From Cladosporium halotolerans (Eukaryota): 64,000 nt of DNA. Location of the stretch: assembly GCF_011745625.1 (NCBI RefSeq), contig NW_027191467.1:248001-312000 (forward strand). The letters run 5' to 3'. The position numbers and the translations under genes were made by a program. Shown in pieces: positions 6,703-63,023 of the stretch (positions are counted from its first letter, which is position 1; each line of letters opens with the position of its first letter). The notes under the pieces are model-generated. The model had not been told where the DNA came from. It saw only the letters and a list, made by a program, of their open reading frames with translations, and searched no databases.

Positions 6703-8101
6703 TTACGTCGTGTCTACAGGCCCTGCGTATGGGAGGGCCGCGGCGTCCAAAAGAGCCCCATTTGCCCTAAGGCAAGCTTGTACCTCACTAACATCAAGCT
6801 TTCCTTTGACAAGCAGTCCTGCGGCTGTTCCTGTTGCTTGGCCTGTAGCTAGAGCAGTCCCCATTACCCTGACAGCACTGCTGGTATACTTGTCACCGTC
6901 CACGCATCTCCCGGCAACGAACAAATTGGCGGTATCTCTACTTCGCAGACATCGAAGTGGGATTTCGAAGGTACCCGCTGGCGGGTATCTGAAACTACTC
7001 TCCCAGAACTCGTTGGTCTCATCATGGAACTCCATGCCCCATGCCCCGATCGCGATGGTGTCGTCAAAGCTGGAGTTGTTCATGAAGTCATCCTCCGTCA
7101 GGCTGTATTTAGCGTTTACGTGACGGCTCTCCCTTGTGCCAAAATTCGGTCCTGTCGACACAAGATACAAGTTCTCGTGACCAGGCAGAGTGCGCAAGAT
7201 CTGAAGGTACGCCTGGGCTTGCTGTCGCCCAGAGATCTCCGCTGCCGTGATAGAAGCGGCATCGCGGGCATCGTACGATGCAGACGCAAGGAATGACATG
7301 ATGTCTCCTGACAGCGGCAGAGGAAGAAGTACGGAGGAGTTCTTCTTGCATAATTTGGCAAGAGATGGATCCTTGTCCTTCGCTTTGACGATTGCCTGTT
7401 TCCAAAGATCTGCAGTTGGCCGTGCATCCGGTGAAAACCCACCAAACCGCGTAGCAAGCGATCCAATGTTAACGGAGCCATGGTTCCCGTAGCGAGTCGA
7501 CGCTCCGACATGGTAGGCGAGGTCTGCGTCTCCCGAACAATCGATGAAGGCAGCCGCAACGAATTTCCTTCTTCCCCGTCGTTCCTGCACTTCGATAGAT
7601 GTTGCGAGTGGTCCCTCGCGGCTCGCCTGCACAACCGCGGCATGTAAAAGGACGTCGATGTTGTTCTCAAGCAGCAACTCGTCAAGTACGACCTTTAGAC
7701 ATTCCGGCTCAACAACCTGTGTTGATGTCAGAAGCGGGCTTTACACTCCAACCAAGTGTACGTACCTGGAATATACCTCGGTGTTGACGTGCTCTCGACG
7801 GTGTTCCTCGGATGGCCAAAAGTCTCCGGTTGATCTCGTCCCATACTCCACCCACCGCTTGCCTGGGCTTGGGCTCTGAAGTGAATAGGCCACAAAAGGA
7901 TACAACGCCTCGGTGCGTGATCGCGCCTCCGAGACAGCCTTCCGACTCAATCACGATAATACGCGCCGCAGGGTTAGCTTGACGGGCTCCTATGGCGGCT
8001 CCAATGCCGGCAGCTCCGCCGCCGACCACGATAACGTCGTAGTGAGGGCTCGCAACTTGGCGCTCGCTCGAATATGTGGAAAGGGTTTCGTCGACCGCCA
8101 T
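6703..8101 (-). CDS. FAD-dependent oxidoreductase (FAD_oxidored / PF12831-like)
   Basis: YDVIVVGGGAAGIGAAIGA Rossmann motif, FIDCSGDADLA, GTRESR, NLFVAGRC, AVRVMGTALATGQATGTAA. One intron at about 7718-7765. Confidence 0.9.
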
Positions 8102-57139: not shown

Positions 57140-58858
57140 ATGACTCCCGCTCTTCTCACTGCGGTAGATTCGACTTCTCATGTACACCTGATCGTCGGCT
57201 CCAACCCTCTCGCCGGCGCACGCTGCAGCAAATCTCTCGAAGTCGGCGCGAAGCCGATCGTTATTGCCCCGGACGATGGCAACCTCCACTACGGCCTGGC
57301 CAAGCGGATCGAAGAGAACAAGGTGCAATGGATAAAGAGGGAGTTCCAAGAGGATGACCTTAAGACGCTTGGACGAGAGGAGGTCGACGGCTTCGTCGAT
57401 GCCGTCTTTGTGACTACTGGCGGCAAGACGTCATTGGGGACACAGATCTCGACGATCTGTCGGAGACTGCGCGTGCCGGTAAATGTTGCGGACGCGCCCA
57501 GTCTTTGCACTTTCAGTTTGTTGTCGACGCACACTTCCGGACCTCTTCAGGTTGGTGTGACGACGTCAGGGAAGGGATGCAAGCTTGCTTCGAGGATCCG
57601 CCGGGAGATTGCTTCTGCTCTTCCCGCTGATCTTGGACCTGCTGTAGAGCGATTGGGTACTGTCAGGAGAAGAATTTGGGAGGAGGACCACGCGGCAGAG
57701 ATGGCAGGAGACCCAGAGGCGGAGGAAGACGAGTCCGGACAGACCGCACAATTCAACAAACTCGTGACGCCGACCGACGTCGAAGCAGCCAAAGCACGAC
57801 GCATGAGATGGCTCGCCCAGATCTGCGAATACTGGCCTTTGCGCAGGCTTGCCGCCATCACCGACGACGACGTGGACACCATGCTCAAGTCCTACAAGCA
57901 AGACACCGCAGCCGCCGTCTCCTACGACAGCAAAGGCCTCCTTAACCCCGCCACTCTGGACGCCCGCTCCAAAACCGGCTGCATCATCCTCGCAGGCTCC
58001 GGCCCCGGGCACCCCGACCTCCTCACAACCGCCACCCTCAAAGCAATCCGCAGCGCCGACCTCATCCTCTCCGACAAGCTCGTCCCAGCGGGCGTCCTCG
58101 AACTCGTCCCGCGCCGGACCCCCGTCGAAATCGCCCGCAAATTCCCCGGCAACGCCGACCAAGCGCAGCAAGAGTTCCTCGAAATGGGCCTCGCCGCCCT
58201 CCGCGAGGGCAAAACCGTCCTGCGCCTCAAGCAAGGCGACCCCTACCTCTACGGCCGCGGCGCCGAGGAGTTCGCCTTCTTCCGCGAGCACGGGTACATC
58301 GCCACCGTCCTGCCGGGCATCACGAGCAGCCTCAGCGCGCCGCTGTTCGCGCGCATCCCCGTCACGCACCGCGCCGTCAGCGACCAGGTGCTCGTGTGCA
58401 CGGGCACGGGCCGCAAGGGCGCCGCGCCCACGCCGCCGGACTACCTGCCCAACCAGACGGTCGTCTTCCTCATGGCGCTGCATAGGCTCGAGGCGCTGCG
58501 CGATAGCTTGACGGCACATAAGGCTGCGCCGTGGCCGGCGAGCACGCCGTGCGCGGTCATCGAGCGCGCGTCGTGCCCTGATCAGAGGGTGATTCGCACG
58601 ACGCTGGAGTATGTTACGACGGCTGTGGAGGAGGAGGGGAGTCGGCCGCCGGGGTTGTTGGTTGTTGGGAGGGCGTGCGAGGTGCTGGAGAAGACGCCGC
58701 AGAAGTGGGTTGTTGAGGAGGGATTCACGGGGCTGGAAGTTTTGGATAGTTTGGGAGAGGGAGGGAAGGGTCTTGATGCGCTGCGGGAGCAGTTGGTGAC
58801 GCCGGGGTTGGAGGAAAGTGGGGATCCTATGAGGATGGCGCAGCCGGTGGTGGTGTGA
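57140..58858 (+). CDS. MET1: Siroheme synthase / uroporphyrinogen-III C-methyltransferase (CysG-like two-domain protein)
   Basis: PVNVADAPSLCTF, LQVGVTTSGKGCKLASRIRREIA, LAGSGPGHPDLLT, RLKQGDPYLYGRGAEE, VIERASCPDQRVIR. Confidence 0.93.
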   Translation: MTPALLTAVDSTSHVHLIVGSNPLAGARCSKSLEVGAKPIVIAPDDGNLHYGLAKRIEENKVQWIKREFQEDDLKTLGREEVDGFVDAVFVTTGGKTSLGTQISTICRRLRVPVNVADAPSLCTFSLLSTHTSGPLQVGVTTSGKGCKLASRIRREIASALPADLGPAVERLGTVRRRIWEEDHAAEMAGDPEAEEDESGQTAQFNKLVTPTDVEAAKARRMRWLAQICEYWPLRRLAAITDDDVDTMLKSYKQDTAAAVSYDSKGLLNPATLDARSKTGCIILAGSGPGHPDLLTTATLKAIRSADLILSDKLVPAGVLELVPRRTPVEIARKFPGNADQAQQEFLEMGLAALREGKTVLRLKQGDPYLYGRGAEEFAFFREHGYIATVLPGITSSLSAPLFARIPVTHRAVSDQVLVCTGTGRKGAAPTPPDYLPNQTVVFLMALHRLEALRDSLTAHKAAPWPASTPCAVIERASCPDQRVIRTTLEYVTTAVEEEGSRPPGLLVVGRACEVLEKTPQKWVVEEGFTGLEVLDSLGEGGKGLDALREQLVTPGLEESGDPMRMAQPVVV

Positions 58859-59408
58859 AGGGGGAGGAGGCAATGATGTACTTGACGGCCGCTGCAGAGA
58901 GCATTGTTTTCAACGAGATACCCAAGCGATATAGACTATTAGACTTCAACATCCAACATCGACATCAACCGATTTTAATCCTCACAATCTCAATCACAAT
59001 CAGCCTTGCTCATCCTATGGACCGTGTCCACGAATGGCGTGCGTCATGAGCATGGTCGTGGAAGCCTGCAGAGGTGATATATCCTAACGCCGATGTAGGG
59101 TGGAATCTTGTAGCCTTCAATGAAGCATGATTGAATCACGATATTCTTTAGATGAATTTATATTCAGCTTTAAGCCTATTCGTTTAGAAACCAGAGTACT
59201 TTACGCTCGTCGATTTGGCAGAAACGAGAAACCGCTGACCCGCCCAGAAGCTTGAAAACCGCCAGTGGCAAAACCTTAATTCCTAACCTCACTTCACCCC
59301 CACGCCCAGCCCAGCCCCTCGACCCCACGCAATCACGTGCCACGCTTTTCACATATATATTGTTGCGCAGTTGCGTATGACATAACCAGAAAGCACGAGT
59401 AGGCGATT

Positions 59409-59604
59409 CGGTCATGTGGCGCAGTGGAAAGCACTATAACGGAGACCCCCCGGGGTCGGCCTCGCCAGTCATCGAGGACTGCTGCCCTGGCACACCCACC
59501 GAAAGCAAAATCCGCCTTAACACCGCGGGTTTTCTTGACACCCCCCGAACGAGGTGGGGTGGCTCTTTTGCCGGGTTCGAATCCGGTGTGCGGCGACTGT
59601 TTTT
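59409..59604 (+). ncRNA. Candidate RNA polymerase III transcript (tRNA-like promoter boxes, multi-hairpin body); identity unknown
   Basis: Box A TGGCGCAGTGG at 59417-59427, box B GGTTCGAATCC at 59574-59584, T5 at 59600-59604, and at least four internal stem-loops. Confidence 0.5.
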
Positions 59605-59737
59605 CCTTTTGTTGGCGGTGATGCTGCTTTTTCAGCATCGCAAATGTGTAAGAATTGTTCCACAGACGTGGCATCATTGTCTAGCAAATAGTATGACGAG
59701 AGCTCAAGACAGTACGACTGGCGCATGGTGACAGCTT

Positions 59738-60970
59738 TCAATACTCGTCGCGCCCGCCACGCCCGCCGTGGAGTCTCCTCCCCGAATCGACATTCTCTGC
59801 TTCCTTCCGCATCCCACCAATGAAGCGGGCTCTGTCAGACCTCTTGCGGTCATCTTCCTCTCGCTGCTTCTCCTCTCTGGCGTCCAACTCTGCCAGCCGG
59901 GTCTTGCGATCGCCCTCAAGCTCTGAAGCGTTCGATTGCATGGCTGCCAAGCGCTTTTCACGCTCGGCTTGCTCTGCCGCGTCGTCACGTTTCTTTTCCT
60001 CAGGTGGTGAACGATAGGATTTAGACCGGTTGCCCGATCGCTCGTACGAAGGCGAAGGTCGGCGCCTAGCGTAGTCATCCTTCGTCGAACGATATGGTGA
60101 TCCTGATCGCGAAGAGCCGGAGCGTCTTGGGCTGGGGTATGATTTGCGGTGCTCTTTACGATCATCGTAGTCGCGTCGTCTTCGTGGCGAGCGAGAGCGG
60201 GATGCGCTGCGATCTCTGTCGCGACGTGACCTGTGGCGATGTTCATCACGGTCACGGTCGTCGCGGCGCCTGTACGGTGATCTCGAGCGGGAGTGAGACC
60301 TGTGCCTGTCCCGACGCGAGCGATGTCTGTGTGATCGTCGGTCGTCCTCCTCGTCGCTGTGCCGTCTCCTCTTGCTCCGGTGGCCGTCATCGTCGTCTCT
60401 GTGGTGCCGACGCCTGTGCCTGTGCTTGGAGTCTCTCTTCTCATCGCCGCCATCTTTTCCCGCCGCCTGCGTGAGCATCTTCTTCCTCGCCGGATCATTC
60501 ATCATAGCCTCGTACGCAGCCTGTTCCTGCCTCTTAATCGCCAGCATTGGATCACTCGCAATCTTCGACGCCGTGTCGCGCGCCGAGTTCGCATTCGAAT
60601 TCAGCGCCATGAACCCCTCCTCCCCAGCATCCTTCTTCATCGCCGCCGCCTCCGACTTCTGCACCAGCCCGTCCAGCTTCCGCTTTCCCAGCAAATACCC
60701 TTCCATCTCCTCGCTCACGCCGCCAGCCCCAGGCCCGCCCGATCCAGGCCCATTATACATCCAGTCCACACGGTCCACGCGCTTCTTGCCGCCAGCGGCT
60801 TCCTGCAACTTCTCCAACTCCAGCAGCGCGCGCTCCTCCGCGCGCTCTTTCAGCACCTGGTCGGTCTTTTTGCGCTCCTCCAGGGCCTTATGTTCCTCGG
60901 CCCAGACGCGCTTCTGGTTGGACATGAGCACCGGGTGCCATGACTTCTTCAAATTGAGGTCGCCACCCAT
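59738..60970 (-). CDS. CWC25: Pre-mRNA splicing factor Cwc25
   Basis: [51 protein letters not shown]-rich tail. Confidence 0.96.
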
Positions 60971-61330: not shown

Positions 61331-63023
61331 ATGTCTGACGACGATGACTTCATGCAGGCGTCCGATGATGAGAAGTATGAATTACTGAGTGACGATGTCC
61401 CAATCGGCTACTGACGTGTCACAGCTATGATTTCGAGTACGAAGACGACGATGATGCCGAGGAGGGAGGGGACGTGGACGTGGAAAACAAATACTACAAT
61501 GCGAAGCAAATGAAAGCCGATGCACCGGAAGAGGCGATAGAGGAGTTCCTGGGAGTGCCGGCGTTGGAAGAGGAAAAAGGCGACTGGGGTTTCAAAGGCC
61601 TGAAACAGGCTATTAAATTGGAGTTCACACTGGGGAGATACGATAAGGTGGGTAGTCGGACAACTTACGTCTTGGGGCAAATGTTGACGCTTTCCACAGG
61701 CAGTCGAGCATTACACGGAGCTCTTGACCTATGTCAAGTCTGCGGTCACTCGCAACTACTCGGAAAAGTCGATCAACAACATGCTGGACTTCATCGAGAA
61801 GAATGCGGGTGACGAGGCGGCGAACCAGTGCATGGAGAAGTTCTACTCCAAAACACTCGAATCATTCCAGGCCACAAACAACGAGCGGTTATGGCTCTCT
61901 ACCAACACCAAGCTCGCCAGGCTTTGGCTTGCACAGAAAGACTACAACCGCTTGACCGAGAAAGTCAGGGAGCTCCACAAGGCATGTCAGCGCGAAGACG
62001 GTACAGACGACCCCAGCAAAGGCACATACTCTATGGAAGCATATGCCCTTGAGATTCAGATGTACGCAGAAACGCGGAACAACAAACGCCTGAAGGTATG
62101 TCCGTCGATATCCTGAGTGCGAAAATCGCAACTGATCTTCTCGCAGGGCTTGTACCAACGCGCACTCAAAGTCCGCTCCGCGGTGCCTCATCCTAAGATC
62201 ATGGGTATCATTCGTGAGTGCGGTGGAAAGATGCACATGAGCGAAGGTAAGCAATGGCAATCTGTGCAGACACGTCAGCTCATATTGACTAACCCAATCA
62301 TCAGAGAACTGGAACGAGGCGCAAAGTGACTTCTTCGAGTCTTTCCGCAACTACGACGAGGCCGGATCTCTCCAGCGAATCCAGGTCCTCAAGTACCTCG
62401 TACTTACGACAATGCTCATGGGCTCCGACATCAACCCTTTCGACTCGCAGGAAACGAAACCGTACAAGAACGATCCTCGCATTGCAGCAATGACCGAACT
62501 CGTGGACGCCTATCAAAACGATCGAATTCACCAGTACGAGGCAATTCTGACGAAGAACAAGGATCTCCTCGCGGACCCGTTCATTGCGGAGAACATCGAC
62601 GAAGTGACACGCAACATGCGCACCAAAGCCGTGGTTAAACTTGTCGCGCCGTACACGCGCTTCAAGTTAGATTTCATCGCCAAGCGTCTCAACATCTCGA
62701 CCCCTGAGGTGCAGGATATCGTTGGCTTCCTCATCATGGACGGACAGCTGCGTGGCAAGATCAACCAGGATGCCGGGACGGTTGAGATCGAGAGTCGCGC
62801 GGATACAGATCGGATGCACGCCGTCGCGGACTGGACCAGCGCGATCCGCTCCCTGGCCTCCTTTGTACTCAACGAGAGCGAGGGTTTCAAGGCTGACGAG
62901 ATGGGCGCCTCGCTCGGCGCCGGGCCCCAGGGGCTGTCAGCTGGGCCGGAAGGCTTCGCGCCCTCACAACGCGTCGCCGCCGGCGGTGGCAGGCGAAAGC
63001 CGCACCGAGCAGCAGGGAAATGA
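61331..63023 (+). CDS. CSN2: COP9 signalosome subunit 2 (PCI domain)
   Basis: [82 protein letters not shown]. Four GT-AG introns. Confidence 0.97.

Follow-up and report, generated by a model that had tools for sequence, protein, structure and literature searches.

A dispersed nine-copy family of Pol III-type genes in Cladosporium halotolerans and the structured RNA that it may encode

A Pol III-type element in the gap between two convergent protein genes of Cladosporium halotolerans is, to judge from its sequence, a member of a dispersed gene family of nine copies. The element lies near the end of the window, which here means the whole 64,000-nucleotide stretch of DNA that was analysed. The explanation favoured here, with a somewhat better than even chance of being right in full, is that Pol III reads these genes into a structured, uncatalogued RNA some 190 nt long, which acts as a protein-binding scaffold. 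That the element is a transcribed gene under selection at the RNA level is probable, and for such a gene a scaffold role is fairly likely, although the only argument for it is exclusion. What is observed is the anatomy of the promoter and the conservation; transcription, the 3' end and function are inferred. The features of the window copy and its neighbours are as follows.

57140..58858, + strand: neighbouring gene, MET1-type siroheme synthase
59284..59339, + strand: upstream promoter-like block (TAACCTCAC, CCCCACG repeats, CACGTG), its arrangement varying among the copies that share it
59354..59360, + strand: TATA element, 23-24 nt before a conserved TGAC in 8 of 9 copies
59379..59569, + strand: predicted RNA, about 190 nt (186-215 nt in eight copies), with the start taken from U6 spacing and the end at the T4 run
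59379..59404, + strand: conserved 5' leader, mostly invariant, predicted to be single-stranded
59411..59440, + strand: hairpin H1, whose tip carries box A; it is degenerate in the window copy
59417..59427, + strand: box A, internal, at about +38, in 9 of 9 copies
59444..59457, + strand: variable hairpin H2, about 13-42 nt long, a hairpin in 8 of 9 copies with a sequence that differs by subfamily
59460..59481, + strand: conserved middle block, which may either fold on itself as a 5-bp hairpin or supply the 3' strands of a pseudoknot formed with the leader
59503..59536, + strand: hairpin H3, its A/U-rich stem interrupted by a single bulged C and its loop variable; 98.6% of cells are paired
59539..59561, + strand: terminal hairpin H4, with one compensatory change
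59564..59571, + strand: TCTTTTGC, probably the terminator for Pol III, found without change in 8 of 9 copies
59574..59584, + strand: box B, which probably lies beyond the transcript; the terminator motif precedes it by 3-14 nt, a spacing that varies between copies
59600..59604, + strand: T5 run, a back-up terminator, or the true end if T4 is read through
59738..60970, - strand: convergent neighbouring gene, CWC25 splicing factor

The first-pass annotation had named most of these landmarks, and they are in place: TATATAT at 59354-59360, a consensus box A at 59417-59427, a box B 146 nt 3' of it at 59574-59584, a TTTTT run thereafter at 59600-59604, and four hairpins between the boxes, each where it had been claimed. 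The identity of the convergent neighbours was likewise confirmed. Two of the hairpins need qualification, in that GACCCC/GGGGTC is correctly positioned and can form 5 bp at most rather than the full 6, and CAGTC/GACTG, present in the window copy, is not kept in the others. The CGGTC/GACTG stem suggested to close the two ends is absent from the other copies.

The nine copies and their promoter layout

Within the window, the box A pattern occurs twice for 2.1 expected and box B with one mismatch ten times for 9.7 expected, which is chance level for both. The element stands above chance because the whole motif arrangement recurs at nine places in the genome. A DNA search of the 27.9-Mb genome, as the first-pass annotation had proposed in the form of a BLASTN check for other copies, found these nine dispersed places on eight contigs, and the two most divergent copies, used as queries, returned only members of the same set. 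A covariance model gives eight copies 183-220 bits, by construction, and the ninth 56 bits. The TATA-plus-box-A pattern matches seven places in the genome, all of them family members, and no control places.

All nine copies are full length, with a core identity between copies of 0.60-0.95. Four copies, the window copy among them, make up a young group (92-95% identical); three form another group, one is intermediate, and one, L009, is decayed and has lost the terminator motif and H4. No branch of this grouping has strong support. Eight of the nine keep the order of TATA, conserved leader, box A, conserved body, YCTTTTGC, box B and T-run. A 105-aa open frame at 59414-59731 was rejected as a gene, given that the copies differ by frame-breaking indels and the frame is not kept among them.

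Mean identity among eight copies is 0.79 in the core, 0.70 at -30..-1 (0.91 in the young subfamily) and 0.61 at -100..-31; over the 30 nt that follow the terminator it is 0.60, and farther out, on either side, about 0.50. Conservation starts from the TATA element, and the RNA probably extends from about 38 nt before box A to a point before box B, so that the borders first suggested, for an RNA of about 195 nt, had to be moved. The TGAC downstream of TATA is invariant. The U6 gene of this genome has a TATA-to-start spacing of 25 nt, equal to that of the family, and a similar TATA-to-box-A distance; the start was placed at G59379 because U6 starts 25 nt after its TATA. That U6 gene (L124, contig C196, about 7144-7380, - strand) itself appears to carry two spliceosomal-type introns, the first with a box A-like motif and the second with a box B-like motif. 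Further upstream of five family copies (L005, L006, L009, L010 and L011), at 220-255 nt, lies TCACGTGA followed by TCACTT(A/C)AC repeats; the strict form of this pattern matched only family loci, and pieces similar to it lie upstream of the MRP RNA gene (L138).

At the 3' side, conservation stops at YCTTTTGC, which is invariant in the intact copies, and is followed by a variable spacer and then box B. The distance from box A to box B is 143-151 bp in seven copies and 167-178 bp in two, and none of the copies has a T5 inside the core. For comparison, T-runs were examined after 48 tRNA genes called at 47 loci, drawn from 63 Rfam tRNA matches after leaving out seven on two contigs with clustered tRNAs, presumably organellar, and nine others; the rows are not independent, as repeated isoacceptors are included. 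A T-run follows within 25 nt in 34 of the 48, and T4+G is the commonest type of first T-run within that distance (18 of 48), with no T5 within 40 nt in 11 of those 18. The 3' motif of the family therefore matches the local terminator. T4+C occurs inside two tRNA genes, and the T4 followed by C inside H3 therefore matches the type that is read through. As an observation on the tRNA genes themselves, the YCTTTTG context, as first T-run after 18 of 48, suggests that four T are enough to stop Pol III in this fungus. From the sequence context, the RNA probably ends at T4, 59566-59569, with box B outside the transcript.

Termination could instead fail at T4, giving a primary RNA of about 222 nt that ends at T5, with or without trimming, and holds box B as a T-loop-like hairpin. 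This is a possibility of real but minor weight. In 8 of 9 copies a run of at least four T lies no more than about 25 nt past box B, a T-arm-like stem with 3-5 of 5 pairs can be drawn in 8 of 9, and Pol III of budding yeast usually needs at least five T. Against read-through, T4+G is the usual tRNA terminator in this genome, the sequence and spacing near box B vary freely, and no helix closing 5' to 3' ends is kept, pairing between a copy's own ends being predicted at -6.9 kcal/mol versus -7.0 for ends taken from different copies.

Conservation of the family, as far as the sequences go, is seen among very close relatives only. Runs X1, X2 and X8 represent such relatives, differing on the CWC25 side by a few per cent; contigs of X1 and X8 lie over the element and differ from it little, and in X1 and X2 loose contig ends match, by eye, the flanks of four or five other copies. 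G59595 is A in three runs aligned to the window. Run X2, which is RNA only by guess, has contigs over 59402-59604 and 59623-60200 and none over 58700-59362; it was not taken as evidence of expression because one paralog contig runs well past both predicted ends. Immediately after the T5 run, at 59619-59641, is a short GC-rich hairpin that is not kept in other copies and that lies near the ends of the CWC25-side contigs (59623 in run X2). A metagenome scan with a leader-plus-box-A pattern returned at least 96 stretches, and a profile search extended the similarity of none of them past the pattern; with so loose a pattern, the scan is no evidence of absence. A 3' pattern matched six unrelated viral stretches and nothing in prokaryote genomes.

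Comparison with known RNA classes and mobile elements

The proposal of a structured Pol III-type gene that is neither a tRNA nor an Rfam family is supported by negative searches. ARAGORN calls no tRNA in the window and none at the eight other loci, and Rfam models match nothing credible in the window element at E up to 10 and nothing in the other eight copies. The absence of U6, SRP and RNase P hallmarks, as first noted, is borne out by covariance models at this locus and the other copies, and a profile search matched no U6, SRP, RNase P, MRP or 5S to the family; U6, SRP, RNase P, MRP, U3 and 5S were each found elsewhere in the genome. In the openly accessible literature the family is not described. 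Aspergillus has structured RNAs of 200-350 nt, Afu-182, -202, -254 and -309, that are likewise intergenic and have been given no class (PMC2377427); Afu-182 adjoins insA (10.1101/2025.10.16.682787). The present family differs from these in having no Rfam match at E up to 10, and the portion of PMC2377427 drawn on here gives no Pol III assignment for them.

A relationship to tRNA was suggested in two forms. Of the first, a novel tRNA-derived ncRNA, the novelty stands and the derivation has just the two boxes as its basis: nhmmer aligned none of 32 distinct tRNAs, an incomplete set, beyond the boxes at E up to 10. The second, a tRNA gene with a very long structured intron, is highly improbable and largely refuted. 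It has boxes A and B in its favour, and intron-bearing tRNA genes with Rfam matches up to 145 nt do occur in this genome. Allowing introns to 300 nt, however, ARAGORN finds a tRNA in none of the nine copies, and its relaxed-threshold calls disagree between copies; the acceptor has 0-3 of 7 pairs in all nine and there is no consistent anticodon. The first-pass annotation had itself been unable to fold a canonical acceptor or anticodon arm. The intron-bearing genes of the genome include ten related ones (L203-L210, L212 and L216; Rfam matches 116-145 nt) whose introns look unusually long, and which ARAGORN labels Asp(ATC), a call that looks wrong and is apparently about 25 nt short.

Dispersed copies bearing boxes A and B, four of them 92-95% identical, could also be a low-copy, SINE-like selfish element whose RNA is spread by a LINE. 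The genome has 75 reverse-transcriptase matches, and fungal SINEs may be low in copy number (PMC5063351); AfuSINE2 and Mg-SINE are comparable in being short and dispersed, with boxes A and B (PMC5063351, PMC2104539). The family differs from fungal SINEs in several respects. Candidate target-site duplications average 3.7-6.2 nt within copies versus 4.0-6.3 nt across copies for four border sets, the longest being a 10-nt word at L006 versus a cross-copy maximum of 9. The copies have no A-rich or repeat tail and no 3' end in common with a LINE or other element, BLAST finding the nine family places only. TATA and upstream motifs, which would lie outside any transcript, are common to the copies, the body is enclosed by the two boxes, with box B at its far side rather than in a 5' tRNA head, and no copy is truncated. 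Homology past both transcript ends, together with the lack of duplications and tails, therefore argues against a SINE, which is considered unlikely. The Magnaporthe WEIRD RNA was rejected as a match, being 1.1 kb and always LINE-fused (PMC2104539).

A Pol III precursor of microRNA-like small RNAs is also rather unlikely. Neurospora milR-1 to -4 offer the precedent of intergenic, Pol III-transcribed genes with TATA-like elements and poly-T ends (PMC3547838), although milR-1 has no predicted A or B box. The invariant 5' leader of the family is 25-26 nt long, within about 35 nt of conserved sequence before box A. The conserved parts contain no long Dicer-type stem, however; the longest uninterrupted helices, 12-13 bp, are in variable parts, and the conserved motifs are spread across 190 nt. 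With up to two mismatches, the 5' motif occurs at three non-family places in the genome, the same as at control places (three), and there is therefore no near-perfect genomic target.

A guide role fared similarly for the 5' leader, the part covered by the complementarity test. Against rRNA, U6 and 5S (three copies by five targets), 14 of 15 comparisons were no better than shuffled queries; the exception, the L005 leader with LSU, beat 12 of 12 shuffled queries and is not common to other copies. Two further candidate pairings, of the leader with the 5.8S rRNA 3' end and, rich in G-U, of the RNA 3' end with the 18S/ITS1 junction, are at chance level. HDV-like and hammerhead ribozyme layouts misfit, by eye against their consensus, and no telomeric template was seen, also by eye. 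As for protein partners, Ro60 (TROVE) has no match in this genome assembly, with matches in 2 of 14 controls, and a search for the major vault protein was silent here and in the controls alike. The genome has a Bin3/MePCE gene, but such a gene is to be expected for U6 anyway and is no specific sign. Elsewhere in the window, 61361-61416 (+ strand) has C-box and D-box motifs and weak matches to archaeal C/D snoRNA models (E 0.04); it lies between open frames of the next gene and may be an intronic box C/D snoRNA.

Predicted structure of the RNA

Most copies form H3 and H4, in which 97-99% of cells are paired. H1 and H2 are two hairpins in 8 of 9 copies folded separately, with arm sequences that differ, and H1 reaches 12-13 bp without interruption in two copies. 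A59438 of the window copy is G in three aligned runs, which restores a pair in H1. The H1 and H2 region folds better than shuffled sequence in L006, L010 and L011 (z of -3.6, -5.1 and -3.4) and no better in the other six of nine copies. In the subfamily of the window copy, z is -0.4 to +0.4 for H1 and H2 and -1.0 to +1.5 for the whole RNA; the window copy itself is not better than its shuffles with the first borders (-1.29) or the revised ones (-0.91). Column-wise covariation is thin, at one to two compensatory pairs.

The middle block can be drawn in two ways. As a local 5-bp hairpin, it is paired in 95% of cells; as a pseudoknot with the leader, it is paired in 72 of 72 cells, with one compensatory change, and GGC(G) of the leader may pair with (C)GCC at about 59463-59466. 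The nested model is reached by 41-66 of 500 shuffles, and pseudoknot models by 5-8 of 500 on three to four measures, the best by 5-6 of 500 on four of five measures, having been chosen after looking at the same sequences used for the test. The pseudoknot is in competition with the lowest part of H1, and nested folding gives the pseudoknot helices a low probability. A pseudoknot of the 5' leader with the middle block is therefore put forward as a modelling hypothesis. Two other folds were rejected. A three-way junction using UUUUG at 59566-59570 pairs in 48 of 48 cells and could not fully form if the UUUUG run is the terminator; a P1 helix (CCAG/CUGG) is paired in only 62.5% of cells as aligned.

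The element could also act as DNA only, as a boundary or roadblock between convergent genes that is bound by TFIIIC and makes little or no useful RNA. The boxes are about one nucleosome apart, and for most copies the surrounding gap has an opposite-strand gene facing it, as judged from open frames. Such a role is quite improbable in that it leaves unexplained the approximately 100 invariant positions between boxes A and B, the hairpins kept despite sequence change and the conserved terminator.

A proposed ribonucleoprotein RNA

For a transcribed RNA gene, the promoter suggests the following mechanism. TFIIIC would bind box A, at +38, and box B just past the terminator, the A-to-B spacing of 143-178 bp being about that of one nucleosome, as in yeast SNR6, while TFIIIB would sit on the TATA box. 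Pol III would start near G59379 and stop in the T4 at 59566-59569. La-type proteins bind the 3' oligo-U of Pol III RNAs, and the product, with its 3' hairpin and oligo-U, would be bound by them. A stable ribonucleoprotein could result, in which the invariant single-stranded motifs (the 5' leader, UCGCC, CGAGGACU and CCACCGAA) bind protein and helices H1-H4 hold these motifs in place, the RNA serving as scaffold or decoy. The RNA would not decode, and an antisense guide sequence was not seen.

The closest architectural parallel is SNR6 of S. cerevisiae, in which box B lies outside the transcript and a nucleosome between the boxes brings both together (PMC13475603). The family is similar in its TATA about 25-30 nt before the predicted start and its internal box A, but its RNA is not U6, which is encoded elsewhere in this genome, no more than 3-14 nt separate its box B from the probable terminator, and it is multi-copy. 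RNA170 and ZOD1 of budding yeast are box A/B genes with non-tRNA transcripts of unclear function, likened here by description and not by sequence, and are single-copy rather than present in nine copies. Vault, Y and 7SK RNAs are Pol III RNAs that act by protein binding. Together with BC1, these resemble the family in proposed working mode only; the family is unrelated to them, has no Rfam match and resides in a genome without a Ro60/TROVE match. On a broader and decidedly tentative view, the family would belong to a new fungal class of Pol III ribonucleoprotein RNAs: an old set of genes whose RNA, with a pseudoknot in its 5' domain and a 3' end of the La/LARP type, scaffolds or sequesters a regulator, a functional counterpart of 7SK or vault RNA, with divergent homologs across the Dothideomycetes that sequence searches would have missed.

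The Pol III set of filamentous fungi is usually taken to consist of tRNA, 5S, U6, SRP and a few milRNA precursors. Nine genes held at 64-95% identity, with a promoter layout of their own, would add an RNA class to that set. The sequences also indicate that, in this fungus, termination at four T and a box B located beyond the transcript are workable, which would matter for genome annotation and for the design of Pol III promoters.
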